Part shown: in pieces, positions 25,649-40,928 of the stretch
Position numbering within the stretch: position 1 is the stretch's first letter
Layout: each line of letters begins with the position of its first letter
Source of the DNA: a virus
Strand: one strand, 5' to 3'
Length of the DNA stretch: 64,000 bases
Virus record (IMG/VR): IMGVR_UViG_3300030390_001024
Location: 1 to 64,000 of that record
Position numbers and translations under genes: made by a program
The notes under the pieces: generated by a model
What the model was told of the DNA's origin: nothing
Databases searched by the model: none
Seen by the model: only the letters and a program-made list of their open reading frames with translations

Positions 25649-28600
25649 TTATACATTAAACCCTATAGATATTAGCTCTGATTTTACAAGACCGTAGTAA
25701 TATGTTTGTGCCTGTGTAGCTGAACCAAAACTTGCACCATCTGATACATTACCAACATAAGTTATTCTTTTTGGTGCTCCATTTGAAAATGATTTGAAAC
25801 TTCTTTCTGGACTATTTTCACTATACGCAAATGCTTGTGGTGCAAAGCTATTACTATAAGGTGTTGTTCCAGGAGGAGATGGACTAAAACGTCCTCCTGT
25901 TTGAGCAAAACCACCTGGACCCATTATTTCTTCTAAGTCATTATTTGCAGTACTACCATCAGCATTAACTTTTGTTACCCTAAAGGCTATACCTCTATAC
26001 ATATCTGATGAAGAGAGTCCTGCATTTGCAGCTTGTGCTTCTATTATAGTAATAAAAGATCTTGTTTTACTTATATCGTCAAGTAATGTTGCATTTGTAG
26101 TGTTTACTCTATCATTCCAAGTACCAGAACCAGATTCACTAGGACTGGCTTCATAAGTAGTACCTCCACCTGCAGATACACCACCTGATTCATCAGCCCA
26201 TGCCATTACAACAATATTTTTTGCACTTGGAAAAAAAGGATTAGGATAGGTTCCTGCACCTATTGTTGCTACAAGAGCACCACCTTGTGCTTGGAAACCT
26301 AAATAACCAAGAGGTCTTTCTTGACCATTGTGGAACCAATATAAATGATTATCATAATCATCTTGACCATTAGTTGCTGTATTTGTATTATTGTTAGCAG
26401 CTGTACCACCTGTTGCATAGAAATCTTGAAGTAAGTTTCTAAAGCTAGTAGTATTAGTATAGTCTGCTGTTTTTTGAGCTTGAGTTCTAGTAAATGTTAT
26501 AATATCACCAGTTTGTGAAGTTAGTGTAGTACCTGAAGGGAGACTTAACGTTAGCGCCCTTAGCCCACTAGAAGGAGCTCCATCATTAAGTACTGTAGTA
26601 CCCACAGGAACTCCAGGTCCTGAAACTAACATATCATCTACAATACATAAATGGGCTTGATCTGTTTCTCCATTTGCATCATTAACTCTTCCTGCTTGAT
26701 TTCCCCTAGCCATTACCATAGTAACACCCGAAGCATTTTGATGGAGTTTAGCTTTTACTTCAGGTACACTACTCATTATTGCTGTCGTTATAATTGTACT
26801 ATTCATAGATCCTGAAGTATCACTATAGAAACAAAAGTATGTATCTTTTGATACTAGTATTCCACCAATAGTAAAAGTTTGTGAATTAAAATTAGGATCT
26901 GGATCCTCAACTGTCATTACAACTTCAAAGTTACCACCAGTAGCTGGATAAGTTCCTGATAAAGTTCCTGTACAGTTATTGTTTGGATCAGGAGTAAAAG
27001 TTAACCAACTTACTCCAGCTACAGGTCCATTTTGTGTAGTAAATATTGTAACAGGTCCGGTGTTATTTTCATTTACTGTAATAGTATACTTCAAGTCACT
27101 ACATGGATGATCTGCATCAGATGTAGTCCAAGTATATGTCCAAGCATCTCCACCTGTTAAGGCTGGATATGTGTTTAAAGTTACTGGATCATCTGAAGTC
27201 CATATTGGAGCTTCAGCTACTGGTAAAACATTTATAGTAATTGTAGCTGGATCACTCTCACAGTAACCATCATTATAAGTAAATGTAAATGTTATACTTC
27301 CATAAAAATTTAGAGCAGGTATAAATAACCATGTACCTGTACCTGTATCAAAAGTAAATGTCCCTGCTGCAGGGTTAGATAATGCACTTGCTGTAAATAC
27401 TCCTGTATAATTTCCATAACCATCATCTACGAAAGTAACAGTATCACCTACACCTCCTGCATCATCTTCATTGACATTATAGTTTCCACCACTAACAGTT
27501 GGACATGTATTTAAAGAAAATAATTTACAACAAGACTCCCAGTATAATATATACTTATATGTAAAACCTCCTCCAGCAACCTCGTAGTTATGATATTTGA
27601 ATTTAAGTGACTCACCATATTTAAGTGTTGATGTAGGATAACCGTTATCAACTCCTGCTGCCCAGCTTATTTTACTATCATATAGATTACCAGGAGTACC
27701 CCATCCAATAGGAAATCTTAGTACATTATCTGCTAGAAATGTTGTTTGCTTTACATTTTCTACTATAACAACTCCTGTCTGACCATCAGTTAGTGTAGTC
27801 ATGCCTTTAATTGATCTATACGGTACTGTAGTATCATCTAGTGATATGTATGCGTTTAAAAATGTCTGATTCCAATCTGCTGTAGTACTCATTGGAAGAG
27901 TATCAAATCCTACAGGAGGAACAATTGTAGCAACATCTCTAAATTTAACTTCATTAGCAGCACTTGGATGTCTTACTAATACTTCAGTAAGTGTGTCATC
28001 TTGTGCTACAGTATCTAGATATAGTTCTTTTGTTTGTTGTAGACTACCATCATTAGTAAGTTTTTGTTCAGTAAAATTAGGATCAGCTGCTGGATAATTT
28101 GCAGGAGGTTGAATTATATCACTTTGTATTAATAGTGAATTTTGTATATTATCTCCATCTGGAGACCATAAAGGCACTCTCCTAAGTGTACCACTACCTT
28201 GAACACCCATGCTATTTGCAAATCTAAATTTAACTAAACCTGTACTTGCATCTAGTACAAGAACCTTTTCTTGTGTAGCATCCTGAGCTACATCTAGTAA
28301 TTTCATTGTACCTGTATTTATCCACTTACCATCATTTGTAACTGTAGTAGCTGGAGTAAATGCGTTTCCATCTTGAATCATTAATGAGTTTGCTATAGTA
28401 ACACCATCTGGTGTAAACATAGATATTCTAAAATTTGTACCACTACCATTAATTCCTGGATTGGGAGCCCAGCTAGGGAAACCACTTGGTCCTCCAGATG
28501 TTAAAACATCATTATTATTACCTGTTCCAAGTGCTCCAGAAGTAAAAGATCCAACTGCTGGAACAATAGTACCAGGAGCTGGCTGAGGATTTTGATATCC

Positions 28601-29350
28601 TATAACTAATTCACCAAATTGTAAATCTGGTAATGATTTCTGCTCTTCCCATCTAAGTCTTCCACAAGTTGTTTGTACCATTATTTGTCCTTGTGCTCCA
28701 TCAGAATTTGGTCCTTGAAAGTGTACACTTCCATATAAATTTAGTCTTGACCACATTGTGAAACTCTGTTGTGGAGGAAAACATGGTGATCCTATAGTTG
28801 TGTTCTGTGTACCAAAGATTGCATCTTGCCTGTTTTCTAAAAAGGTTCCAGCAGTACCAAATTTTGGGCCATATGTTAAGTCTTCAGTACCACTTAGTAA
28901 ACCATCCTGTCCCGCAATCATTACTTGTCTGTCAGTTAAGCTAGTAACATAAGCTTTACCATAAGTAATAAACTCTGCTTGTTTATTAGGTTGTCCTATA
29001 AATATTAAAGGTGAGGCTGTATCTTGAGTTATTATAGAATCTTTTAATGAGTGCCATGAACATTGTCCTTGCTTAAGCCAAAACATAGGAATTACACCAA
29101 CCTCATCTCCACTGTTTTTTACTGTACTAACAAATCTACCAAGACCTTGGGGTCCTGTTTGACTACACAACCAGCTTCCAGCACTAATTGATAATGCTTG
29201 ACCTTGAGGAGCAAACCCTCCTGCTGAAGTTTTTGCTCTAGACAAAGCACCTTTTCTAACAAACTGAAAATAGTCATCAGTTGGATTTAATGTTTTCTTA
29301 ACAAAATTCCTTTTTAGTAGACCTAATACCTCTTGTACAAATATGCTCAT
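25649..29350 (-). CDS. Tail fibre/adhesin with cadherin (Big_9-like), Ig-like and MIDAS VWA-like domains
   Basis: VNEDD...PALNFYGSITFTFTYNDG...VLPVAEAP; SWLTF...GTLSGT; YSDTSGSM...MAWADES; internal duplication. Confidence 0.75.
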   Translation of the reverse strand: MSIFVQEVLGLLKRNFVKKTLNPTDDYFQFVRKGALSRAKTSAGGFAPQGQALSISAGSWLCSQTGPQGLGRFVSTVKNSGDEVGVIPMFWLKQGQCSWHSLKDSIITQDTASPLIFIGQPNKQAEFITYGKAYVTSLTDRQVMIAGQDGLLSGTEDLTYGPKFGTAGTFLENRQDAIFGTQNTTIGSPCFPPQQSFTMWSRLNLYGSVHFQGPNSDGAQGQIMVQTTCGRLRWEEQKSLPDLQFGELVIGYQNPQPAPGTIVPAVGSFTSGALGTGNNNDVLTSGGPSGFPSWAPNPGINGSGTNFRISMFTPDGVTIANSLMIQDGNAFTPATTVTNDGKWINTGTMKLLDVAQDATQEKVLVLDASTGLVKFRFANSMGVQGSGTLRRVPLWSPDGDNIQNSLLIQSDIIQPPANYPAADPNFTEQKLTNDGSLQQTKELYLDTVAQDDTLTEVLVRHPSAANEVKFRDVATIVPPVGFDTLPMSTTADWNQTFLNAYISLDDTTVPYRSIKGMTTLTDGQTGVVIVENVKQTTFLADNVLRFPIGWGTPGNLYDSKISWAAGVDNGYPTSTLKYGESLKFKYHNYEVAGGGFTYKYILYWESCCKLFSLNTCPTVSGGNYNVNEDDAGGVGDTVTFVDDGYGNYTGVFTASALSNPAAGTFTFDTGTGTWLFIPALNFYGSITFTFTYNDGYCESDPATITINVLPVAEAPIWTSDDPVTLNTYPALTGGDAWTYTWTTSDADHPCSDLKYTITVNENNTGPVTIFTTQNGPVAGVSWLTFTPDPNNNCTGTLSGTYPATGGNFEVVMTVEDPDPNFNSQTFTIGGILVSKDTYFCFYSDTSGSMNSTIITTAIMSSVPEVKAKLHQNASGVTMVMARGNQAGRVNDANGETDQAHLCIVDDMLVSGPGVPVGTTVLNDGAPSSGLRALTLSLPSGTTLTSQTGDIITFTRTQAQKTADYTNTTSFRNLLQDFYATGGTAANNNTNTATNGQDDYDNHLYWFHNGQERPLGYLGFQAQGGALVATIGAGTYPNPFFPSAKNIVVMAWADESGGVSAGGGTTYEASPSESGSGTWNDRVNTTNATLLDDISKTRSFITIIEAQAANAGLSSSDMYRGIAFRVTKVNADGSTANNDLEEIMGPGGFAQTGGRFSPSPPGTTPYSNSFAPQAFAYSENSPERSFKSFSNGAPKRITYVGNVSDGASFGSATQAQTYYYGLVKSELISIGFNV

Positions 29351-29378
29351 AATGTTTTTTTAACAAATATATTAAATT

Positions 29379-32300
29379 CTATGCATATATTGTGCAGTTG
29401 ATAGTTGGGTTCTTTCCGGTTGGTACACCATTAGCACAAGTTTTTAATTCTACAACAAAACCTGTTGTAGCTTTACTTCTTACTTCACAATACATACATC
29501 CATCTCCTGATCCTATCTCAGGTACAACCATAGCTAAATAATCAGTATTAGCTCTTGTAGTATTAAAAACTACATCATACACAAAACCACTATTAGATAC
29601 ACTATTGTTTCCTGCAGTTGCAGATTGTCCTTGATTTACAATACCACCCTGTCTAAAAGAAAAATAATCAGTTGGTTGTCTATTAACTGCTACTGCAGCT
29701 CCACTTGATGCAGCAGTAAGTCTTCCTTGTTGGTCTACTGTAAGAGTAGTATTAGTATAAGTACCTGGTGTTACAGCTGTATCAGCTAACTTAACTGTTA
29801 CTATATCTGTAGCAGATGCTTCAGTACCAATACCTGTTCCTCCTAATAAAGATAATGTGTTTCCGTCTGTAACTGAAAATCCTGAACCACTAGATGCAGC
29901 AACATTAAATGAAGTTGTTGATACATCTGTCCAAGGAACATTAACTACTAATTGTTCAGCAGCGTTAAGTTGTAATCCATATGTTCTACCAGCTGTACCA
30001 CTTATTGCATTTGCTGCAACAGATTGAGGATCACTTGAAAAAAGCTCAGCACCACCACGTACAGTAGATGTCATTAAAGGTAATGTGTAAGCTGTCCATG
30101 GTACGTTAACTACCATCTGACCTGCAGGATTTAATTGAATACCATATGTTCTAAGTGCAGTAGTACTTACTGAAACAGAAGCAACTGTTTGCACTGTATC
30201 TGAGAATAACTCAACTCCACCAAGTACGGTTGATGTTGCAACTGGTAGCGTATAAGCTCCAGCATACTGTGGTATATTAAGAACACCACCACTTAACGTA
30301 GCTGCACCTGAAGTTCCTGTTGTAGTTAAACTCACAAATGTTGGTGCTGATCCTGCTACAATGCTAGTAACATGTCCTTGTGCATCTGTAATTACTGAAC
30401 TTGGATAAGCAAATGTACCTGCTGTACCAAACGCATCATGATTTATTGTAATTGTATCTGGAGCTGAAGTAACTGAAGTTAATGCAGTTCCTCCTAATAC
30501 CTTAACAGCATTTCCACTTGCAACAGTTTGTGCAAGCCCTGAATCTCCTTGTATAGTAAAGCCTTCATAGTAACCAGGCATAGTATTAATTGCAACCTTA
30601 TAAACATTAGTATCAGTTATATCACTAAATGCTATAAAGTCTCCAGCTGCTGCTACTACTGTAGATCTTAAGTTAATGTAGTTATCAGGGCCTAAATAAT
30701 CCAAGTTAAAATTAATTCCGGTTGCTGCATTTCCTGTTGTTATACCTGCTCCTCCTGCAAAATCTACTATGTCACCACTATTTATAGTAACATTTGATCC
30801 TGCATCTGCTTGACTTATCCAAGTATAACCACCTGCAGAACCATTTGCTGCCAAGGTAATTCTACCTTGTGCGTCAACTGTTATATTAGCATTTGTATAT
30901 GAACCAGCTGTTACTGCTGTGTTATCTAAATCAAGTGTAAGATTTCTTGTACCTGATAAAGTTGATGTTAAACCAACCCCTCCTAAAACTTCTAATATTT
31001 CACCATTAGCTACTGTTTGATTTGTTCCTACATCAGAACCAACAGTCCATGATGTCATTCCAGCACCACCACTACTTGCTGTAGTTATTCTTCCATATAT
31101 ATCAACAGTTACATTTGCATTTGTATAAGATCCTGCTACTACACCACTTGCTGTACTATTTATATTAATTGTGTCTCCTCCTGAATTAACAGTAGTTAAG
31201 GTACCTGTTGTATTTCTAAATTTGATTATTTCATCACCTAAAACCTCTATATTAGTACCTGTTACTGAATCTGCAAACCATCTATAGTTAGTTGGAAAGC
31301 TTGATAGTAATGATTTTTTAATAGTGCTGTCTGTTGCATCACTAAACCAAAAGAAATCATCTTTATCTGGTGCAGCTGTTTGTGCATATAATATTGCATT
31401 AGTTGCACTAGCATATGTTATATTTACTGTAGGAGTTACCGCTGGTGCTCCCGTTACAGTTATCCCATTTCCACCTGATACTGAAGTTACTGTACCAGCA
31501 GATGCATAGTTAGGAACATTTAATACTCCTGAAACTAATGTTGCAGCTCCGGTTGTTCCTGTAGTTGTTAAACTTGTAAAAGGAATTGTTGGGAATGTAG
31601 CTAAATTACCTTGACCTGTTATATATTGAGCTGCAGTTCCTGCCCAAGTAAATCCTAAAGCTGGGGTAGTTGTTGGGTTTACAACAGCTACATCAAAAGC
31701 ATCTCCTGCAATTGTTGCACTTACTGTAGTCACACTACCAGATCCTGCTGGTACCGCCCATGTATTATCTCCTCTTAAGAATGTAGTATTACCTGGAGAA
31801 CCTGTAGCTGATAGATCTCCTGTAATTGTACCTGTAGCTGTTATTGTTCCACCAGTTACATTTACAAATGTCCCATTAGATGTTGCTACAGAAGTAACTC
31901 CATCAACTGGTAATGCTGCTAATGATAAATTTCCTAAGATTACTTGTGAAGCTGTACCTGCTCCTGCTATATTAAAAGTTCCTGACCCAGTTATTGGAGA
32001 ACCTGTTATTGTTAATGCAGTTCCTGTTTCTGTTAATGCAACAGAAGTTACTGTTCCTACATTAAGAGTTGGGAAAGTAACTAAATCACCCTCTCCATTT
32101 ATATATTGGGAAGTTGTACCTGCCATTGTAAAAGATACATTTCCTGCAGTTGTTACAGCATTGCCATCAATAAACGCATTACCATCAGTTTGTAAACCAA
32201 CGCTTGTTACTGTTCCTCCACCACTAGTAGCAGCAATTGTAACTTGACCTGATCCATTATCTGTTAAACTAATAAATGCACCAGCAACTAACTTTACTGT

Positions 32301-32585
32301 ATCTACACTAGCATCTGATCCTGTAAGTTTTAAATCTACATTAGCTCCAACCTGTATGCTACTTAAATCATAAGTAGTATTTACACTTACTACAATAGCA
32401 TCCGCAAATTGTTTAGCTGAAATTAAATTTTGATCCACTTTTGGTAAGTAGGCCATTGTGTTTAGTGAACTATCCCCTTTATTAGATAGTACAAAGTAAT
32501 CGTCCTCACTTAGTACGTAAGGTAAAGGTTTTACAAATTTTTTCTTAGCAAATAATCCTAAGACATCTTGAAGTAGTGAGCCCAT
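29379..32585 (-). CDS. Long G/T/S/A-rich tail fibre with repeated shaft modules
   Basis: GSYTNANITVDxxGRIT repeats; GTVTSV repeats; tandem YTLP...VVNVPWT; gp53-like C-terminus. Confidence 0.85.
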   Translation of the reverse strand: MGSLLQDVLGLFAKKKFVKPLPYVLSEDDYFVLSNKGDSSLNTMAYLPKVDQNLISAKQFADAIVVSVNTTYDLSSIQVGANVDLKLTGSDASVDTVKLVAGAFISLTDNGSGQVTIAATSGGGTVTSVGLQTDGNAFIDGNAVTTAGNVSFTMAGTTSQYINGEGDLVTFPTLNVGTVTSVALTETGTALTITGSPITGSGTFNIAGAGTASQVILGNLSLAALPVDGVTSVATSNGTFVNVTGGTITATGTITGDLSATGSPGNTTFLRGDNTWAVPAGSGSVTTVSATIAGDAFDVAVVNPTTTPALGFTWAGTAAQYITGQGNLATFPTIPFTSLTTTGTTGAATLVSGVLNVPNYASAGTVTSVSGGNGITVTGAPAVTPTVNITYASATNAILYAQTAAPDKDDFFWFSDATDSTIKKSLLSSFPTNYRWFADSVTGTNIEVLGDEIIKFRNTTGTLTTVNSGGDTININSTASGVVAGSYTNANVTVDIYGRITTASSGGAGMTSWTVGSDVGTNQTVANGEILEVLGGVGLTSTLSGTRNLTLDLDNTAVTAGSYTNANITVDAQGRITLAANGSAGGYTWISQADAGSNVTINSGDIVDFAGGAGITTGNAATGINFNLDYLGPDNYINLRSTVVAAAGDFIAFSDITDTNVYKVAINTMPGYYEGFTIQGDSGLAQTVASGNAVKVLGGTALTSVTSAPDTITINHDAFGTAGTFAYPSSVITDAQGHVTSIVAGSAPTFVSLTTTGTSGAATLSGGVLNIPQYAGAYTLPVATSTVLGGVELFSDTVQTVASVSVSTTALRTYGIQLNPAGQMVVNVPWTAYTLPLMTSTVRGGAELFSSDPQSVAANAISGTAGRTYGLQLNAAEQLVVNVPWTDVSTTSFNVAASSGSGFSVTDGNTLSLLGGTGIGTEASATDIVTVKLADTAVTPGTYTNTTLTVDQQGRLTAASSGAAVAVNRQPTDYFSFRQGGIVNQGQSATAGNNSVSNSGFVYDVVFNTTRANTDYLAMVVPEIGSGDGCMYCEVRSKATTGFVVELKTCANGVPTGKNPTINCTIYA

Positions 32586-32595
32586 TTTTTATTTT

Positions 32596-32940
32596 TTATA
32601 AGAACAGAGCAGATAGCTTTACGCTTGTCTGTGCTGAACATGTTATTGTTATATTACCACTAGCATCATTAAAAGCATCAACTTCAAAAGGTCCTAAAAA
32701 ACCTTCCTCACCAGCCGCTAAGCTAAGTACTGCATTTTCTTTTTTAAGTGTACCCAATAAAGGATCTACTACTGTTGTAACAACTGGAACTACTGTAGCC
32801 GTGATAGCTACACCTCCACCATTAACAACATGAAAAAATTGGATTGCTGTATTTGCAAGTGTATCACCACTTGCAGCTGGAGTAACCGTTGTAGGTTCCA
32901 AACCAGCTTGAGTTATTTGTTGTGCTGTTAATACTGCCAT
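32596..32940 (-). CDS. Small beta-rich virion protein
   Basis: Beta-sandwich-like 114 aa ORF in the structural block. Confidence 0.65.
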   Translation of the reverse strand: MAVLTAQQITQAGLEPTTVTPAASGDTLANTAIQFFHVVNGGGVAITATVVPVVTTVVDPLLGTLKKENAVLSLAAGEEGFLGPFEVDAFNDASGNITITCSAQTSVKLSALFL

Positions 32941-32950
32941 AATATTTTAT

Positions 32951-33196
32951 TTATTTTCCGTTTCTATATCCACTTCTAAAAGCAGCTGACTGAACTGGTT
33001 CTGCAGCTCTAGTAGACTTTTGTGGTGGATTTAAATTTGTTTTCTTTGCTAGCTTAATTCTAGCTGCAACCTTTTTCTTGTTCTCAGCATTCTGCAATGC
33101 TTGTTGAACAGAGGTAGGATTATAATATCCATTAGTTGTTTCTCTTTTAAAAGCCTCTCCCTGCATAGGAAAAGATGCTTTATTTGCTTTACCCAT
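32951..33196 (-). CDS. Small basic protein (81 aa)
   Basis: In-operon ORF. Confidence 0.7.
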   Translation of the reverse strand: MGKANKASFPMQGEAFKRETTNGYYNPTSVQQALQNAENKKKVAARIKLAKKTNLNPPQKSTRAAEPVQSAAFRSGYRNGK

Positions 33197-33201
33197 AATT
33201 T

Positions 33202-33288
33202 TTATTTTTTAAGTGCATGGGAACCATCACAGCTTCCATCAGAATTCTGCGTGTTACCACATACACATTGTTGTCTATTATTATTCAT
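33202..33288 (-). CDS. 28 aa CDGSH iron-sulfur micro-protein (not in ORF track)
   Basis: MNNNRQQCVCGNTQNSDGSCDGSHALKK; fits between neighbours with 5 nt gaps. Confidence 0.8.
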   Translation of the reverse strand: MNNNRQQCVCGNTQNSDGSCDGSHALKK

Positions 33289-33293
33289 ATCTT

Positions 33294-33635
33294 TTATTTT
33301 TTATAAGCTCTACGTGCAGTTTTTCTCATCATTCCTTTCTTAGTACCACCACCTTTTTTCATCTTATTCATCATAGGATCTAATACTGAACCACTACCAT
33401 TACTAAACATTTCTAAACCACCTGCTGCAGCCATTGTTTCCATAGCCATTGCTTGTGGAGTAAGATCTCTCATTCCATCATCTGATGATGTAAAACCTCC
33501 AGCTCCAGTCGCCATTAAGGTATCTCCTCCCATATTATATCTTTTCATTTTATTTTCTTTTTTCTTTTTTTTCTTTGCTGAGGAGCTTCCTCCTATTTTG
33601 TAATTCATTCCAGCTCTTGACATATTGTTTGGCAT
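33294..33635 (-). CDS. Met/Lys/Gly-rich disordered protein with repeated xxxGG motifs
   Basis: YKIGG, YNMGG, AAAGG, MKKGG. Confidence 0.7.
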   Translation of the reverse strand: MPNNMSRAGMNYKIGGSSSAKKKKKKENKMKRYNMGGDTLMATGAGGFTSSDDGMRDLTPQAMAMETMAAAGGLEMFSNGSGSVLDPMMNKMKKGGGTKKGMMRKTARRAYKK

Positions 33636-33647
33636 AATTTCTAATTT

Positions 33648-34049
33648 TTATTTGTTATTGTTTTTTACTTTTTCTAATGAACGTCCTCCAAAGTATGCAC
33701 CTATTACTGTAATTAAAACTAATTGTAATAGATCAACCCAGGAAGCTTTGACATCAAATGCTATAAAGCCTGCATCAACAAATACTAACAATACTGTTGA
33801 TACTACTAAAAATATTAATGTCATTGGTCTTACGTTTTTACTTAACCAACTATCTGAATTCATATCTGAACTCCATCTTGTTGTTATTTCTTTCTCCATG
33901 TTTGCTTCATGCTTGGAGATTAATTCTTTTATCTTTAACTCAGCAGCTAGCTTTTCTTCATCAGAAGTATGTAGCCCATCTATAACACTACCAATACCAA
34001 CAACTAATTCTTTAGCTCCACTTGAAAATATTTTACTTAGTATACTCAT
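33648..34049 (-). CDS. Holin (GTA 3TM-like)
   Basis: RWSSDMNSDSWLSKNVRP, two TM helices, AYFGGRSLEK. Confidence 0.85.
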   Translation of the reverse strand: MSILSKIFSSGAKELVVGIGSVIDGLHTSDEEKLAAELKIKELISKHEANMEKEITTRWSSDMNSDSWLSKNVRPMTLIFLVVSTVLLVFVDAGFIAFDVKASWVDLLQLVLITVIGAYFGGRSLEKVKNNNK

Positions 34050-34053
34050 AACT

Positions 34054-35415
34054 TTATGTTTGTTGAACTGCTACACTCCAAATTACATTTAACTCATCTG
34101 ATTTTACTACCCCATCAAAATTGAAACCAAACATAGCATATCCAACACCTGAAATTGCTGATGACAGTGTAACAACCACTGCACCACATTCAAGCTGTCT
34201 TTGATTACCAGATGGCCCTACAGGACCATTGGGAGCTGCACTTAATGCTACATCTCTTAAATTTACTGGCCAGTTGCTTGTACCAGTGTCACTACAAGTA
34301 TACCATCCTAATACAGCTTTATAAGTTTGTCCACCAGAAGCCCTTTTATTAGTAATCCTATAAGAAAGCGTTATTGTATCACCAATTTTTAAGTCTTTTT
34401 CTATAGGTATACCAGCACTAAATACTGCATCTGTAGGTACTTGCCAGGATGCTGCTGCATTCATAGATTGTGTTACATTTGTCCAATCAAGTAAATATGG
34501 TGAGTATTGAGTTGTAGTACCTGCTAAATTAGCTACAACTTCTTGACCCATCATTTTAAAATTATCACCGGTCATAGCTAAAGTATAAGCATCATTAGTT
34601 AGATCACCCATCATCATAAAAGCTCTACCAGAACCTACAATACTATCTATAGTACCACCACCTCCACCTGATCCACTACTTGCTGCAGTTAATCTACCCT
34701 GTTGATCTACAGTAATATTTGCATTAGTGTAAGATCCCGGTGTAACAACAGTGTCATCTAAGTCAATTTCTAACGTACCATTTAGACCTGATGCAGCCAT
34801 ACTAGTTGTAATTCCTGTATCTCCACTAATCAATAAATTAAATCCTGACCCTACACTTATACTAGGATTTAATCCAGCATCTGATTTTACTACCCAATTA
34901 TATGTGTTGGTAATTGTTAGCTCATTAGCAGTTTGCCCAATAGTAATATTAGTACCCTCAACTAATGTTCTAAAGTTAAGTGTCTCACCAACTTTATCTT
35001 TCCACACTTCTTTACCTGTTCCTACATTAGCTGCAAGATTAGGCTCTCCTAATGTTGTTATTTCTATATAATCATCATCAGATGAAACAGCAAGAGTAAG
35101 ATTACTACTCATTGATTTAAGAGATCTATAAAATATAGTACATACTTGTGTAGTTGGATCAACTACAGTTTTTTGATACACCCCTACTGTACCAGCAGCT
35201 GGTTTAGCTGGAGAGTTTGCATGGTCACAATGTTCTGCAGCAACATTTAAATCTCTTACCTTTATTACTTTTATACTTTTATAAGGAATAGGTGAGGCAA
35301 CACCAGTCATGTCTGGTTCTTCGTTTACACCTAGAACCAATACATCATCAAGGCCTGCTTTCTTTGCATATACAGATCTTCTTATTAAACTTAATACATC
35401 AGTTAAAATGTTCAT
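34054..35415 (-). CDS. Short tail fibre-like protein
   Basis: LNFRTLVEGTNITI, GSYTNANITVDQQGRLTAASSG; N-terminal module shared with the other fibres. Confidence 0.75.
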   Translation of the reverse strand: MNILTDVLSLIRRSVYAKKAGLDDVLVLGVNEEPDMTGVASPIPYKSIKVIKVRDLNVAAEHCDHANSPAKPAAGTVGVYQKTVVDPTTQVCTIFYRSLKSMSSNLTLAVSSDDDYIEITTLGEPNLAANVGTGKEVWKDKVGETLNFRTLVEGTNITIGQTANELTITNTYNWVVKSDAGLNPSISVGSGFNLLISGDTGITTSMAASGLNGTLEIDLDDTVVTPGSYTNANITVDQQGRLTAASSGSGGGGGTIDSIVGSGRAFMMMGDLTNDAYTLAMTGDNFKMMGQEVVANLAGTTTQYSPYLLDWTNVTQSMNAAASWQVPTDAVFSAGIPIEKDLKIGDTITLSYRITNKRASGGQTYKAVLGWYTCSDTGTSNWPVNLRDVALSAAPNGPVGPSGNQRQLECGAVVVTLSSAISGVGYAMFGFNFDGVVKSDELNVIWSVAVQQT

Positions 35416-35546
35416 CGTCCTTGTCCTCTATATTTTTTATTATAATTCTTACTGCTAGTTAAGTTTGAGCTTTTAGATTTGGAGTGTACTCCTGGTCTTT
35501 TAGCTCTCCTAGGTTTTACATAAGTACTATGTAATATTCTAGCCAT
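35412..35546 (-). CDS. 44 aa basic micro-protein ending KKYRGQGR (not in ORF track)
   Basis: MARILHSTYVKPRRAKRPGVHSKSKSSNLTSSKNYNKKYRGQGR; overlaps both neighbours. Confidence 0.8.
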   Translation of the reverse strand: MARILHSTYVKPRRAKRPGVHSKSKSSNLTSSKNYNKKYRGQGR

Positions 35547-35800
35547 TACTTAACTTCTTTCTTTTTTCTACCTTTTCTAGCTTTACCTTTTACTGCTCCG
35601 CCTACATCACCTATTTGATTAGCTACTTCTTTTAATGCTTTAGTTACATCTTTAATTTCTTCAACTGTTAAACCATATCTATACTGCAAATCAGAAGCTA
35701 ATGCTTTTGCTTTTTCATCTACAGAAGTCTTTGACCATAGCTTTAGCCAATAGTCTTGTGGACTAAATGTCCATAATATACTCACAAATTTTTTAAACAT
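35546..35800 (-). CDS. Hypothetical coiled-coil protein with basic tail
   Basis: First gene of the - strand operon. Confidence 0.75.
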   Translation of the reverse strand: MFKKFVSILWTFSPQDYWLKLWSKTSVDEKAKALASDLQYRYGLTVEEIKDVTKALKEVANQIGDVGGAVKGKARKGRKKKEVK

Positions 35801-36085: not shown

Positions 36086-37063
36086 ATGAAAGACATTTTT
36101 AAGCCTAGACTAAATATACTACCTTATCAATACCCACAACTATTAGCATACAAAGATGCAATCAGACATTCTTATTGGATAGATACAGAATTTAATTTTA
36201 CAGAAGACATACAAGACTTTAAAATTACTATTACACCTGAACAAAAAGATGTAATCAAAAAAACAATGTTGGCCATTGCTCAGATAGAAGTAAATGTAAA
36301 AACATTCTGGGGTGATTTATATAAACGTATGCCCATTACAGAAATTGGTGATGTGGGTTTTACATTTGCAGAATCTGAAGTAAGACATAAAGATGCTTAT
36401 GCTAGACTGCTGAGAATCTTAGGGTTAGAAAAAGAATTTGAAACAGTTGTTGAGGTACCAGCTATTAAAGGAAGGATTAAATACTTAAAAAAATACTTAG
36501 ATGGAACAAGAAGTAGTGATGATAAAATGTATACTAAGTCTGTTCTTTTGTTCTCTCTATTTATAGAACACGTTAGTTTATTTAGTCAGTTTCTTATAAT
36601 GATGTCATTTAATAAAGAACTTAATTTATTTAAAGGCATTTCAAATGTTGTTGAAGCCACCAGTAAAGAAGAAGAAATACATGGAAACTTTGGTGCTGAA
36701 CTAATAAATATAATAAAAAAAGAAAATCCACACTGGTTTAACTCTCAGTTCAAACAATTGATTTATTCTGCATGTCAAAAGGCCTATGAAGCAGAATGTA
36801 AAATATTAGATTGGATATTTGAGAAAGGTGAACTATCTTTTCTTTCTAAAGAAGTAATTGAAAACTTTATAATGAATAGGTTTAACAACTCATTACAAAA
36901 AATAGGGATGAAAAGTATATTTGAGGTTGATAAAACAATGTTAAAACAAGTAGAGTGGTTTGATATAGAAATAACAGCCACTAAAGAAGGAGACTTCTTT
37001 TATAAAAAAAGTGTAGACTATAATAAAAAAAGTAAAAGTATAACTGAAGATGATCTCTTCTAA
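36086..37063 (+). CDS. nrdB: Ribonucleotide reductase class Ia, beta subunit
   Basis: ESEVRH...Y, IEHVSLFSQF, EEEIH, DFF motifs. Confidence 0.95.
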   Translation: MKDIFKPRLNILPYQYPQLLAYKDAIRHSYWIDTEFNFTEDIQDFKITITPEQKDVIKKTMLAIAQIEVNVKTFWGDLYKRMPITEIGDVGFTFAESEVRHKDAYARLLRILGLEKEFETVVEVPAIKGRIKYLKKYLDGTRSSDDKMYTKSVLLFSLFIEHVSLFSQFLIMMSFNKELNLFKGISNVVEATSKEEEIHGNFGAELINIIKKENPHWFNSQFKQLIYSACQKAYEAECKILDWIFEKGELSFLSKEVIENFIMNRFNNSLQKIGMKSIFEVDKTMLKQVEWFDIEITATKEGDFFYKKSVDYNKKSKSITEDDLF

Positions 37064-37073
37064 AAAACCAAAC

Positions 37074-38699
37074 ATGGAATACAAAAAATATTACTGGCTT
37101 AATAATGATAGCAGAACGTTTCTGTCTAGAGGATATATAACTGAAACACCAGAACAAAGAATAAAAGACATTGCTATTAAGGCAGAAAAATATTTAAATA
37201 TTAAAGGGTTTGCAGAAAAGTTTGAAGACTATATGGCACGTGGGTTTTACTCTCTATCTACACCTGTATGGATTAACTTTGGTAAACAAAAGGGGTTACC
37301 TATTAGTTGTTATGGTTCTAATATAGATGATAACTTAGATAGTATACTTAACGCAGGCCGTGAAATAGGAATGATGAGTAAGTATGGTGGAGGCACAAGT
37401 GCTTTCCTAGGAAACATCAGGCCAAGAGGTAGTGAAATATCTACAGGTGGTCATGCTGATGGGCCTATTCACTATGCTAGAATGTATGACACAGTAGTTG
37501 ATGTATGTAAACAATCAGAAGCTAGACGTGGTGCTTGTGCAGTGTACTTACCTGTAGAGCATGCAGATATACTAGAGTTCTTAGATATAGGTACTGAAGG
37601 TAACCCTATACAAAACTTGCAGTATGGTGTTACCGTTACTGACCAATGGATGGAAGAGATGAAAACAGGAGACAGGAAGAAGCGTAAAGTATGGGCTAAG
37701 ATCATACAACGTAGGTCTGAGTTTGGTTATCCTTATATAATGTTTAAAGATAATAGTAATAATAACTCTCCATACAAAGATATAGGGCTTGAAATTACAG
37801 CATCAAATCTATGCTCAGAGATTCAGCTACCAACAGATAGTTATAATTCTTTTGTGTGTTGCTTAGGATCTATTAACCTGTTACACTGGGATGAAATTAA
37901 AGAGACGGATGCAGTACAAACCTATGTTTACTTTTTGAATGCTGTTATGGATGAGTTCATTATCAAGTCAGAAACAATGCCTGGGATGAAGAGAGCCTAT
38001 AATTTTGCTGAAAAACATAGAGCAATTGGTTTAGGTGTATTAGGATACCATTCTTTATTTCAATCAAAGCTTATTGACTTTGAATCATTAGAAGCTAAAC
38101 AACTTAACTCAGAAATATTTAGAACAATAAAAGATAGAAGTGAGATAGCCTCAAGAAAACTAAATTCAGAATATGGATATAGATCTTTAAGAGAAGGTTA
38201 TGCTAATACTACACTCATGGCTATAGCTCCTACTAAGTCTAGTTCATTTATACATGGTGCTGTATCTATGGGTATTGAGCCTATTAAGTCTAACTACTTT
38301 ATCAAAGATCTTGCTAAGTCTAAAACAGTTTATAAAAATCCTTTTTTAGAGTGTGAGTTAGAAAAGCATGGTATAAACAATGATAAAACATGGAAGTCTA
38401 TACTTAAAAAAGATGGGAGTGTACAACACTTAGACTTTCCTACTAAGACTGTCTTTAAGTCATTTGTAGAAATAACACCAAAGGAGTTAGTATTACAAGC
38501 TGCACAAAGACAAAAGTATATTGATCAATCACAATCACTTAACTTAATGATAGATCCCTCTGTATCAGCTAAACAAATCAATCAGTTATATTTGTATGCA
38601 CATGAAGAAGGAGTAAAAACTTTATACTATCAGTTTAGTAAAAGTTCTGCACAGGACTTTGCAAGAAACATTCTAGAGTGTACTAGCTGTGAGGGTTAG
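37074..38699 (+). CDS. nrdA: Ribonucleotide reductase class Ia, alpha subunit (no ATP cone)
   Basis: PISC, SNLCSEI, IAPTKSSS, KTLYY, C-terminal CTSCEG; start likely 37074. Confidence 0.95.
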   Translation: MEYKKYYWLNNDSRTFLSRGYITETPEQRIKDIAIKAEKYLNIKGFAEKFEDYMARGFYSLSTPVWINFGKQKGLPISCYGSNIDDNLDSILNAGREIGMMSKYGGGTSAFLGNIRPRGSEISTGGHADGPIHYARMYDTVVDVCKQSEARRGACAVYLPVEHADILEFLDIGTEGNPIQNLQYGVTVTDQWMEEMKTGDRKKRKVWAKIIQRRSEFGYPYIMFKDNSNNNSPYKDIGLEITASNLCSEIQLPTDSYNSFVCCLGSINLLHWDEIKETDAVQTYVYFLNAVMDEFIIKSETMPGMKRAYNFAEKHRAIGLGVLGYHSLFQSKLIDFESLEAKQLNSEIFRTIKDRSEIASRKLNSEYGYRSLREGYANTTLMAIAPTKSSSFIHGAVSMGIEPIKSNYFIKDLAKSKTVYKNPFLECELEKHGINNDKTWKSILKKDGSVQHLDFPTKTVFKSFVEITPKELVLQAAQRQKYIDQSQSLNLMIDPSVSAKQINQLYLYAHEEGVKTLYYQFSKSSAQDFARNILECTSCEG

Positions 38700-38803
38700 T
38701 CTTTAATAAAGACTACAATATCACAACTATGACAAAAGTAATATTTGTCATCACCTGCACCAGAATAATAAGTCATTGCTGAATTGCATTTTTTACATCT
38801 CAT
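38696..38803 (-). CDS. 35 aa Zn-ribbon micro-protein (not in ORF track)
   Basis: MRCKKCNSAMTYYSGAGDDKYYFCHSCDIVVFIKD; two CxxC motifs. Confidence 0.65.
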   Translation of the reverse strand: MRCKKCNSAMTYYSGAGDDKYYFCHSCDIVVFIKD

Positions 38804-38805
38804 AT

Positions 38806-38892
38806 TTACTTTTGCTTTAAATCATCTATTAATAGTTGACAAACTGTAAAAATAATAAATATATAAAATACTAAAAGTGTATATTTTTCCAC
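38806..38892 (-). CDS. 28 aa single-TM peptide (GTG start)
   Basis: MEKYTLLVFYIFIIFTVCQLLIDDLKQK; abuts both neighbours. Confidence 0.4.
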   Translation of the reverse strand: MEKYTLLVFYIFIIFTVCQLLIDDLKQK

Positions 38893-39312
38893 CTAGTAAC
38901 TTGCTTCACGCCTAACCACCTCTATAGCCCTGACCATTTTGTTATAGTCTACAGGACATAATAGATCAAGCTTTGCTCTTGCTGTAAATTTAATGTATGC
39001 ATCACCCTTTAAATATAACAGTAAAGTTGGTGCCATTCTAATTCTAAGTTCTTTTTTTAATTTTGGTGAGGTAGCAATATCACATCTATAATATGTGACT
39101 CCCTCAAGATTGTTGATTTTTTTCCAGTCTGGAAATGCATTGTCTTTATTAAAGTCTGCCCAAAACTCTACTACAATAACATTATCTTCTCCATCTTCGT
39201 CAAATGCAGATGCTCCTGTAACCTTCTCCTCAAAGTCTTTATCTGTGATCCATTCCTGAGACAGTACAGTTGTTGTTGTTAAAAGCAATAATACTGTAAG
39301 AATGTACTTCAT
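38893..39312 (-). CDS. Exported thioredoxin-fold protein lacking CxxC
   Basis: Signal peptide; ITDKDFEEKV, VVEFWADFN, RIRMAPTLLL (cis-Pro loop). Confidence 0.75.
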   Translation of the reverse strand: MKYILTVLLLLTTTTVLSQEWITDKDFEEKVTGASAFDEDGEDNVIVVEFWADFNKDNAFPDWKKINNLEGVTYYRCDIATSPKLKKELRIRMAPTLLLYLKGDAYIKFTARAKLDLLCPVDYNKMVRAIEVVRREASY

Positions 39313-39313
39313 C

Positions 39314-39604
39314 TTATTTCTTTTTAGTTAACTCGTAGATTCTCTCTTCCATTTTGTCAAACTTTTCTAATAATGATTCTACATCTTCTTGAGTATCCAT
39401 AATGGTTTGTCTAATTAACTCATCTTTTAAATCATACTCTACTCTTTCTATTGGAGGTTTTGGGTTCTCCATTGCAGTAGCTATATCTGCTTTTAATGTA
39501 AACCACATTGTTGATAATGAAATTACAAATCCCACAATCATTCCAATTGTCTTAAGGTCTAAGGTTACTTGTGTTTTTTCTCCTATCTCTGGTACTCCCG
39601 CCAT
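39314..39604 (-). CDS. Single-TM coiled-coil protein
   Basis: TM segment TIGMIVGFVISLSTMWFTL followed by heptads. Confidence 0.8.
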   Translation of the reverse strand: MAGVPEIGEKTQVTLDLKTIGMIVGFVISLSTMWFTLKADIATAMENPKPPIERVEYDLKDELIRQTIMDTQEDVESLLEKFDKMEERIYELTKKK

Positions 39605-39616
39605 TGTTTTATTTTT

Positions 39617-40834
39617 TTACTTGAATGTATAATTTAATCCTAATGTTGTTTGAAACAACTCACTGTCCCACATCTTTGAGTATTCTCCTTCCATAAACAC
39701 TCCTATATTTTTATTTATCTTCCAACCTAAGTTAGCACCAAAAGAATAGTCTGCCCATTGTTCTGGATCATTATCTAAAATTAAGCCACCCTTACCCCAG
39801 TTATTTCTATTTAAATAAGAAACAACCTCATCTCCTTTTAAGTATCTGTGGTATGGTAGTATATAGTTAGCATATGCATGTATCCAAAAGTTTCTTTTGT
39901 AATGATAGAAGTCCATTCCTAGTATAGGTGCTACCTCACCAAATGCAGGTATCTCTGATAATGATTCTCTATTAAAGCGGTTCATCAAATCTGTAAATAC
40001 AGTTTCTCTGAAATCAATATCAGAATAAGCTACAATAGTTCCATCTTGATCTTTCCATATCCAGTCTTGCATCTCTTCTCCTGTATTTGCATCTGTATAT
40101 GTAGTAAGATGATCAGTATAACCGTATTCAAATCCTAAAGTATACCATGGATGTACAGGAAACTCAAACTCATTCCCGTCTTGATCCATATATATTTCTG
40201 TTTCATTAAGCCATATCTCAACTGGGTTATAACCATATGCACGGCTATGAGTTCTATAGATTGCACCTGCAGAGATACTAAACTTTTCTCCTAAAGGTAA
40301 CCTTAATCTTGCTTCTGCTGATTCATAGGCTAAATTTATCTTTCCTACCTCTCTTGACTCAACTTTAAAGATGTGATGATCTCCTGTATGCTTTATAAAG
40401 AACCTGTGGTTTCTAAACATCTCACCTCTCCAACGTTCTTTTTCCCAATGTAATTGATATTCTAAACCTTTTAATGCAGAACTTGGGGCACTAAATGCAA
40501 GCTGTTCTTCTGTACCATCATAAAAATTTCTTGGCTTTCTCTCATAACTAAACCTTGCTAGCTTTCTAATACCAAAACCAATTCTATAATCAAATGGGTA
40601 GTCAGGCGTATTATCTACTACAACAGGTATATCATAAAGACCATCGCCATCCCCTGTTCTTACAAAATAGGTTGACACATCTTCTTCTATAGAGTTGTTT
40701 AGATCAGCAGCTCCATATATAGTACCATATTTAATAAAGTCTTTATATAAGGATTTAAAAAATGGTGAACTATCTTGAGCAGAAGCACCATTTATAACCA
40801 ATATACATACTAATAAACTTACATATCTTTTCAT
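39617..40834 (-). CDS. Putative outer-membrane beta-barrel protein
   Basis: Signal peptide; aromatic amphipathic strands; C-terminal TTLGLNYTFK resembling a beta-signal. Confidence 0.65.
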   Translation of the reverse strand: MKRYVSLLVCILVINGASAQDSSPFFKSLYKDFIKYGTIYGAADLNNSIEEDVSTYFVRTGDGDGLYDIPVVVDNTPDYPFDYRIGFGIRKLARFSYERKPRNFYDGTEEQLAFSAPSSALKGLEYQLHWEKERWRGEMFRNHRFFIKHTGDHHIFKVESREVGKINLAYESAEARLRLPLGEKFSISAGAIYRTHSRAYGYNPVEIWLNETEIYMDQDGNEFEFPVHPWYTLGFEYGYTDHLTTYTDANTGEEMQDWIWKDQDGTIVAYSDIDFRETVFTDLMNRFNRESLSEIPAFGEVAPILGMDFYHYKRNFWIHAYANYILPYHRYLKGDEVVSYLNRNNWGKGGLILDNDPEQWADYSFGANLGWKINKNIGVFMEGEYSKMWDSELFQTTLGLNYTFK

Positions 40835-40928
40835 AGTGTAGTTTTGTTATGTTAATACGTATTGGTTTATATAATAATATAAGAACTTTTTATGAATCTA
40901 AGAAGAACTTAACCTGAAAATTTGACAT

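Follow-up and report, generated by a model that had tools for sequence, protein, structure and literature searches.

A conserved three-gene envelope module of marine phages as a possible spanin-like device for outer-membrane lysis

We describe a group of envelope genes in a 64,000-nucleotide stretch of viral DNA, positions 1 to 64,000 of the IMG/VR virus record IMGVR_UViG_3300030390_001024, which we call the window. The record itself is 75.9 kb long, with an estimated completeness of ~66% and a G+C content of ~32%. Giant open reading frames (ORFs) of 4387, 1932 and 1103 aa lie on the minus strand of the window, and a replication module on its plus strand. Directly past the 1932-aa gene, after a 94-nt spacer, four minus-strand ORFs follow at 38696-40834. 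Three of these, here named p405, p96 and p139 and together called the trio, lie on the same strand as the giant virion-protein genes that precede them and are separated by 12 nt (p405/p96) and 1 nt (p96/p139). The original prediction had seen in this region a compact operon for an outer-membrane barrel, a membrane anchor and an exported thioredoxin devoid of redox chemistry; all four ORFs are present, as are the signal peptide, the LGLNYTFK end, the two DQDG motifs and the WADFN site that it had listed.

The three genes and their predicted products

The genes of the trio and the parts of their products discussed below are as follows.

39617-40834, minus strand: p405, 405 aa; exported, modelled as a 12-stranded outer-membrane beta-barrel
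40469-40561, minus strand: loop of p405, residues 92-122; conserved, with motif FYDG.E; low-confidence model
39944-40246, minus strand: insertion of p405, residues 197-297; ~100 aa, alpha/beta, between strands 7 and 8, with both DQDG motifs
39314-39604, minus strand: p96, 96 aa; bitopic membrane protein with a heptad-rich helical tail
39494-39550, minus strand: transmembrane helix of p96, residues ~19-37; hydrophobic helix by sequence
38893-39312, minus strand: p139, 139 aa; exported thioredoxin fold without CxxC

The N-terminus of p405 reads MKRYVSLLVCILVINGASA up to the predicted cut and QD after it, giving by eye a signal peptide of residues 1-19 cleaved between ASA and Q. Its C-terminus, LGLNYTFK, resembles a beta-signal; in 29 aligned homologues, F, I or Y usually occupies the final position or the one before it, and the window protein ends F-K. 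Searches by sequence found no match for p405 in Pfam, PHROG, NCBIfam or PDB. The family comprises 2273 clusters at E <1e-3 in a collection clustered at 90%, the matches listed including marine ones from Tara, JGI and ENA, and 252 representatives at 50% clustering. An AlphaFold2 model based on 29 diverse homologues (predicted local distance difference test score, pLDDT, 72.5; predicted template-modelling score, pTM, 0.65) contains twelve long antiparallel strands, and the leading Foldseek matches of p405 against PDB are all outer-membrane barrels. Structural alignment (VIA) gave Tsx at Z 13.8 over 193 residues, followed by the EstA barrel (12.1), KdgM (11.7), NanC (11.6), OMPLA (10.5) and PcoB (10.3). 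Judged by this model, p405 is an outer-membrane beta-barrel, as had been proposed, and not a soluble fold.

The termini of outer-membrane proteins are periplasmic, and counting the order of strands back from the C-terminus gives the probable sidedness of the two longest excursions from the barrel. On this count the insertion, which AlphaFold2 models with confidence, would be exposed at the cell surface, and the loop of residues 92-122, in which G107 is nearly invariant, would lie on the periplasmic side, where it could be a docking site. In the model, each DQDG motif falls at a hairpin turn within the insertion; Pfam gives no support for calcium binding. Conserved charged residues (R90, K91, E125, R176 and R194) fall in predicted barrel strands. 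Two further identities for p405 were considered and set aside. The idea of an enzyme that degrades the outer membrane, akin to OMPLA, LpxR or OmpT, was not adopted because the invariant and near-invariant columns of the p405 alignment hold no Ser or His; and the nearest named clusters in the ESM Atlas (Lsa36, DUF6850 and Chlam_OMP), at 0.93 and with ~150 shared features, lie in the range of chance.

In the second product, p96, a short N-terminus leads into a single hydrophobic helix, and a helical, heptad-rich C-terminal part of ~58 aa follows. K18, E56, K60 and R65 are invariant in 31 aligned sequences, three of them within a motif of the form E56..K60 D61..R65, and the helix and the conserved heptad-rich tail across this alignment fit the earlier description of a coiled-coil protein with a single transmembrane segment. 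The distribution of charge, read by the positive-inside rule, suggests an N-in/C-out topology. By similarity, p96 has a weak match to phrog_1009, a PHROG to which no function is assigned.

The third product, p139, carries a predicted signal peptide (residues 1-18, cleaved between VLS and Q) and matches the Pfam family Thioredoxin (PF00085) at E 4.9e-6, above the curated cut-off. Its AlphaFold2 model has a pLDDT of 88.2, and Foldseek aligns it to TrxA-type structures with TM-scores of 0.77-0.84 and root-mean-square deviations of 2.1-2.9 A. The segment W51-A-D-F-N55 (DNA 39148-39162) aligns to the WCGPC of solved thioredoxins, with the cis-Pro retained; CxxC is replaced in 43 of 43 aligned family members, in which N55, N58 and the cis-Pro, P95, are invariant. 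The view of p139 as an exported, redox-dead thioredoxin is thus well founded. Since the site is invariant even though CxxC has been lost, the old active-site face appears to have been kept for a non-redox purpose, and the alignment suggests that the substituted site and the cis-Pro together form a conserved binding surface. A conserved lipobox was not found in the 43 aligned homologues, and the signal region of the window p139, like that of most homologues, is without Cys.

Several relatives, which we number with the prefix L, also encode short thioredoxins of the canonical kind, with WCGPC or WCAPC and without a signal peptide: L027 (9962-10216), L128, L130, L144, L145, L155 and L158. In L027 and L178, a canonical thioredoxin gene stands directly 3' of the gene for the dead, exported one. 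There are hints here that the latter derives from a phage thioredoxin associated with ribonucleotide reductase (RNR).

Conservation of the trio and its genomic neighbourhood

We then compared the locus with its relatives in IMG/VR. All 35 loci found via p405 carry p96 and p139, in an order that stays constant even where the flanks differ, and a second phage lineage, whose barrel is only ~32% identical to p405, likewise carries all three genes. Taking these two sets together, 99 of the 106 loci with room have the complete trio. Among 78 further loci found via p139, 74 have the barrel, and the remaining four are cut by a contig end. After removal of duplicates, p96 is followed by p139 in 135 unique loci at a median gap of -4 nt (an ATGA overlap), and the barrel lies upstream on the same strand in 130 of them, directly adjacent in 54. 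Where it is not adjacent, the interval is filled by lipoproteins, a Cys-rich secreted protein or an 84-aa protein with two transmembrane segments. No fusion of p96 with p139, or of either with the barrel, was seen among the loci examined, and the order of the trio is kept in phages with contigs of 40 to >200 kb.

The genes therefore co-occur as a conserved unit in at least two phage lineages, as expected had they been rightly grouped. The description as a compact operon holds for this unit, and less well for its parts: by its overlaps, only the p96/p139 pair forms a tight, translationally coupled core, whereas the barrel gene is often set apart from the pair by envelope genes and the micro-ORFs described below are lineage-specific. 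In the second lineage (L038-L117; for example L081:7013-7513 and L047:7216-8016), a secreted Cys-rich protein of 166-266 aa always stands between the barrel and p96. It has a weak LDL-receptor class A-like match and, by eye only, a tail like those of the type IX secretion system (T9SS); Pfam and NCBIfam recognised no T9SS sorting domain in the Cys-rich proteins of the relatives.

The typical order in the relatives is a protein with two transmembrane segments (tm2), p405, variable envelope genes, p96, p139, endolysin and holin. Examples are tm2-p405-p96-p139-amidase-holin and p405-CysRich-(tm2)-p96-p139-M15-holin. The endolysin next to p139 belongs to one of three unrelated families (Peptidase_M15_3/phrog_894, phrog_3000/phrog_33083, or PG_binding_1 with Amidase_2) and the holin to one of two (phrog_3427/GTA_holin_3TM or Phage_holin_4_1-like), and the counts that follow cover these five families. 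An endolysin was recognised within 1 kb at 38 of the 94 loci whose flanks are long enough, and a holin within 2.5 kb at 36; at least one of the two is present at 49. In many relatives the holin orthologue is one or two genes past p139, and in L081 this orthologue matches PF11351 at 7e-5 and phrog_3427 at 3.7e-29. It is a common feature of lysis cassettes that the endolysin is swapped for non-orthologous enzymes around constant genes. With varied endolysins around a constant trio, the context of the trio behaves like such a cassette.

In the window itself, the neighbourhood is arranged differently, and the features flanking the trio are these.

40863-40924, minus strand: spacer upstream of p405; two invariant blocks, candidate regulatory element
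38806-38892, minus strand: GTG-start hydrophobic micro-ORF VEKYTLLVFYIFIIFTVCQLLIDDLKQK, 28 aa; candidate coding sequence
38696-38803, minus strand: p35; 35-aa CxxC...CxxC zinc ribbon with weak zinc-ribbon Pfam matches
36086-38699, plus strand: class I RNR beta and alpha genes, convergent to the trio
35546-35800, minus strand: small basic protein of 84 aa, LWSKT.VDEK family; hmmsearch E 9.7e-43 against the family from relatives
33648-34049, minus strand: holin candidate of the phrog_3427/GTA_holin_3TM type (phrog_3427, E 1.3e-30)

Past the trio the window thus runs through the convergent RNR genes, the 84-aa gene and a fibre-like gene to the phrog_3427 holin. Genes of the LWSKT.VDEK family occur in 45 loci, either right behind the trio or immediately ahead of the endolysin, and in the window the member of this family is separated from the trio by the inserted RNR genes: the window is an instance of the cassette split by RNR genes. 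RNR genes adjoin the trio only in the lineage of the window, where their orientation varies, and nowhere in the second lineage; endolysin and holin genes adjoin it in both. The RNR pair therefore looks like a mobile block at the boundary of the module; in L014-L027 it lies upstream of the trio and is co-directional with it.

Other genes of this region can be noted more briefly. Fibre-like proteins of 1233, 1068 and 453 aa are encoded on the minus strand at 25649-35415; the largest has Big_9 and cadherin-like domains, and the two others share repeated 'TVDxQGRxT' segments. Past the holin, two small, very basic proteins rich in Gly, Lys and Met are encoded on the minus strand at 33294-33635 and 32951-33196, and low-complexity basic ORFs with KKKGG or RRRWKC ends fill the region past the lysis genes in L011, L012, L032-L034 and L042.

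The two micro-ORFs that had been reported are both there, past p139, the shorter being a candidate coding sequence. The stop of p35 overlaps that of the convergent RNR alpha gene by 4 nt, and p35 is conserved in the closest relatives only (L002-4 at 97%; L006, L007 and L026 at 44-50%); by this distribution it is a lineage-specific gene outside the conserved core. The same 28-aa peptide is found in L002, with DNA differences that by eye are synonymous, and is absent from L006 and L007.

The spacer upstream of p405 holds two blocks, TATATTATTATATAAACCA at 40863-40881 and CAAATTTTCAG at 40914-40924, each unique in the window and invariant in the orthologous spacers of six relatives (seven spacers compared), even where the flanking 1932-aa gene is only 37-40% identical. 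No sigma-70-type match was found in this spacer, and the regional scan gave fewer such sites than shuffled sequence and no terminator. Of the promoter-like motif that had been placed at 40872, what stands is accordingly a conserved and unique element, and not a match to a sigma-70-type promoter; its conservation fits a dedicated regulatory element.

DNA nearly identical to this locus is present in marine metagenomes from several studies. Marine metatranscriptome contigs from three studies cover p405, p96 and p139, two of them without mismatch, and one 690-nt contig from an RNA library spans p405 into the upstream 1932-aa gene. These contigs, which carry neither strand nor level and may include carried-over DNA, are weak evidence that the trio is transcribed.

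Searches with tblastn and blastn of 50,697 deposited phage genomes found no match to p405, p96, p139, the whole stretch or the distant barrel homologue. With at least 534 matches to the thioredoxin gene in IMG/VR, in addition to the 2273 barrel clusters, the module can be called widespread in the ocean. Among 185,579 species genomes, relatives of p139 occur on just seven short contigs from five metagenome-assembled genomes (MAGs), which argues that the family is not an ordinary bacterial gene. Four of the five MAGs are Flavobacteriaceae or Bacteroidota; three contigs (L196, L198 and L201) come from a Red Sea MAG labelled Candidatus Woesearchaeota and are probably mis-binned phage.

Gln directly follows the predicted signal-peptide cut in 22 of 25 p405 rows and in all 39 ungapped p139 rows, and Gln at this position has been described as specific to Bacteroidetes (the Q-rule, PMC5837995). 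Together with the MAG assignments, this suggests that the host is probably a marine flavobacterium, and the trio is probably the local copy of a widespread marine-phage module carried by phages of Flavobacteriia. A T9SS was also considered as evidence for the host and set aside: a 259-aa early protein has leucine-rich repeats, but Pfam and NCBIfam found no T9SS sorting domain in it.

Possible roles of the trio in the envelope

Taking gene context and predicted architecture together, we tentatively favour, as a possibility that falls short of an even chance, that the trio spans the envelope as a spanin-like device and carries out the outer-membrane step of lysis. In such a device, p405 would form a 12-stranded barrel in the outer membrane of the host, p96 would be anchored in the inner membrane with its coiled coil in the periplasm, and p139, as a periplasmic thioredoxin fold that has lost its redox chemistry, would act as a binding adaptor. 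The three would assemble across the envelope late in infection and, once the holin had fired and the endolysin had removed the peptidoglycan, the assembly would destroy the outer membrane. It would thus be a functional analogue of two-component spanins in which the outer-membrane lipoprotein is replaced by a barrel and a soluble adaptor. Topology, physical contact, late timing and lytic role are all projected from the genes and their models.

A non-canonical spanin substitute was one of the functions first listed for these genes, and it gains support from the relatives, in which endolysin and holin genes flank the module on one or both sides; the context lends no such support to the other functions on that list, superinfection exclusion and nutrient or metal uptake. 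In line with a substitute, a holin is present in the 76-kb record, and neither a lipoprotein nor a spanin candidate is. The whole record yielded no credible ORF of >=40 aa with a lipobox, nor any homologue of the lipoproteins of the relatives, so that there is no candidate o-spanin or u-spanin; the earlier statement that the window lacks a lipoprotein spanin pair therefore extends to the full record.

Several points weigh against this proposal. The argument from the lysis context works by association, and in about half of the loci with room none of the three endolysin and two holin families searched was recognised nearby. In the window, the trio is not beside an endolysin (none was recognised in any part of the 76 kb), and 5 kb, with the RNR genes and a fibre gene, lie between it and the holin. 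Moreover, the module occupies a boundary between structural, RNR and fibre genes, a kind of site at which unrelated accessory genes collect. With ~58 aa, the predicted periplasmic part of p96 is short for a protein that is to span the periplasm, and we know of no membrane-fusion or membrane-disruption device that uses a beta-barrel. Finally, some loci have pairs of a lipoprotein and a transmembrane coiled-coil protein that may be ordinary spanins, in which case the trio would be redundant there.

These pairs deserve a description of their own. In L014 (10443-11213) and L015, a lipoprotein of 136-146 aa with a Pro/Asn-rich tail adjoins a 111-aa paralogue of p96 (phrog_20984), and in L007 (9176-9586) such a lipoprotein lies between the barrel and p96. 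They are candidate classical o-spanin/i-spanin pairs beside the trio, and their arrangement suggests that the p96 coiled-coil family may also be able to pair with a classical lipoprotein partner.

An alternative that we regard as unlikely is that the phage remodels the envelope of its host. The barrel with its large acidic domain would then serve superinfection exclusion or receptor masking, p96 and p139 would help to assemble or regulate it, and adsorption or DNA entry of competing phages would be blocked or progeny kept off lysing cells. The outward orientation of the 100-aa insertion, as argued from strand order, would suit such a role, as would the interval between p405 and p96, where variable genes for exported products gather (lipoproteins, proteins with two transmembrane segments and Cys-rich secreted proteins) in a pattern typical of genes for the host surface or for conflict; outer-membrane barrels are, moreover, known from other phages (porin- and OmpW-like, in uncultured phages). 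Exclusion genes, however, are usually variable and lineage-restricted, whereas the order of the trio is conserved down to ~32% identity and across contigs of very different size. Remodelling also leaves the coupled inner-membrane coiled coil, the dead thioredoxin and the recurrent endolysin and holin flanks without explanation, and the position of the window trio after giant virion-protein genes on the same strand would fit late expression.

Those same flanks could instead point to the timing of lysis, with p96 and p139 as a holin or antiholin and a periplasmic sensor, comparable to T4 holin T and antiholin RI, and with the barrel relaying an external or periplasmic signal. The predicted build of p96, with one transmembrane helix and a periplasmic C-terminal domain, the secreted partner p139 encoded by an overlapping gene, and the place of both within lysis cassettes are compatible with this. 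We nevertheless consider it improbable: the cassettes already hold one or two holin-like genes (phrog_3427 or Phage_holin_4_1-like, plus the two-transmembrane 84-aa family), searches of Pfam, PHROG and NCBIfam revealed no relation of p96 or p139 to T, RI or any holin family, and a barrel has no precedent in timing control. Less probable still, in our view, is a small, specific uptake channel of the Tsx, NanC or KdgM type that imports nucleosides or another nutrient. It would match the 12-stranded specific channels that head the structural comparison (Tsx, KdgM and NanC), the conserved charged residues in the predicted barrel strands and the RNR genes that adjoin the trio in the window and in many relatives. 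Yet by sequence p405 belongs to no channel family, and a channel would need neither an inner-membrane coiled-coil protein nor a dead thioredoxin; the reading is weakened further by the second lineage, where RNR genes are absent and endolysin and holin genes remain. The position past virion-protein genes also suggests late rather than early expression.

Returning to the proposed role in lysis, a bolder form of it would make the trio a third, undescribed class of outer-membrane disruptor, in which a barrel assembled by the host barrel-assembly machinery (BAM) provides the outer-membrane anchor and a redox-dead thioredoxin links it to an i-spanin-like inner-membrane protein, and which would be the standard finish of lysis in a large fraction of marine Bacteroidota phages. 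We hold this wider claim to be doubtful. Our search of the literature turned up no lysis cassette that had been described as including a barrel or a thioredoxin.

The trio is a concrete candidate for the means by which phages that lack recognisable spanins get through the outer membrane. Should the role in lysis be correct, the spanin lipoprotein would prove replaceable by a beta-barrel together with an inactivated thioredoxin, the annotation of lysis cassettes in marine viromes would improve, and there would be an example of a phage that relies on the host barrel-assembly machinery late in infection. Should it be otherwise, a conserved, phage-encoded barrel that would expose a domain at the cell surface remains relevant to how phages of Flavobacteriia interact with their hosts and with each other, and these bacteria play a major part in degrading the carbon of algal blooms.

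Comparison with known systems

Taken singly, two of the three proteins have well-known structural counterparts. p405 shares strand number and barrel geometry with Tsx, NanC/KdgM, OMPLA and autotransporter beta-domains (Z 10-14) and, like other 12-stranded outer-membrane barrels, has a signal peptide and a last C-terminal strand that contains an aromatic residue. The likeness is one of fold only, without sequence similarity, and the Ser/His/Asn triad of OMPLA is absent from the conserved columns of p405. Unlike these barrels, p405 has a 100-aa inserted domain and a long conserved loop, predicted to be periplasmic, and the members seen of its family come from phage contigs, apart from a few on contigs of MAGs. 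Similarly, the beta-alpha-beta core of the thioredoxin family (PF00085; E. coli TrxA), the Trp before the active site and the cis-Pro loop are all found in p139. In contrast to that family, p139 is exported by a signal peptide and has A-x-[FW]-N in place of CxxC in every member, so that thiol chemistry is not available to it.

As a set, the trio is best compared with two-component spanins (lambda Rz/Rz1, T7 gp18.5/18.7 and T4 PseT.3/PseT.2). In these, the i-spanin is a type II inner-membrane protein, the periplasmic ends of the two subunits bind each other, and the pair is needed for outer-membrane disruption. p96 is predicted to share the build of an i-spanin, with an N-terminal transmembrane segment and a periplasmic coiled coil in ~100 aa, and the gene for the exported p139 overlaps or just follows that for p96, as an o-spanin gene does that of its i-spanin. 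In 49 of the 94 relatives whose flanks are long enough, the trio stands, like spanins, near an endolysin or a holin gene; in the window, the holin is 5 kb off. As with spanin pairs, the products of the trio are predicted to reach the inner membrane, the periplasm and the outer membrane. The two systems are without sequence relation, however. An o-spanin is a small Pro-rich lipoprotein with a lipobox Cys, whereas p139 carries a type I signal peptide ahead of a thioredoxin fold; a third gene, that of the 405-aa barrel, would supply the outer-membrane anchor in place of a lipoprotein; and the periplasmic part of p96 is short by comparison.

Of 677 surveyed phages of Gram-negative hosts, 91 (~13%) have no recognisable spanin (PMC6139136), and spanins are annotated in only some flavobacterial phage isolates (PMC8776804). 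A spanin-independent route is already known in disruptin, gp28 of phage phiKT (bioRxiv 10.1101/515445), which meets the same need as is proposed here for the trio, a breach of the outer membrane in phages that lack spanins. Disruptin, however, is a single small cationic peptide, whereas the trio comprises three exported proteins with defined folds.

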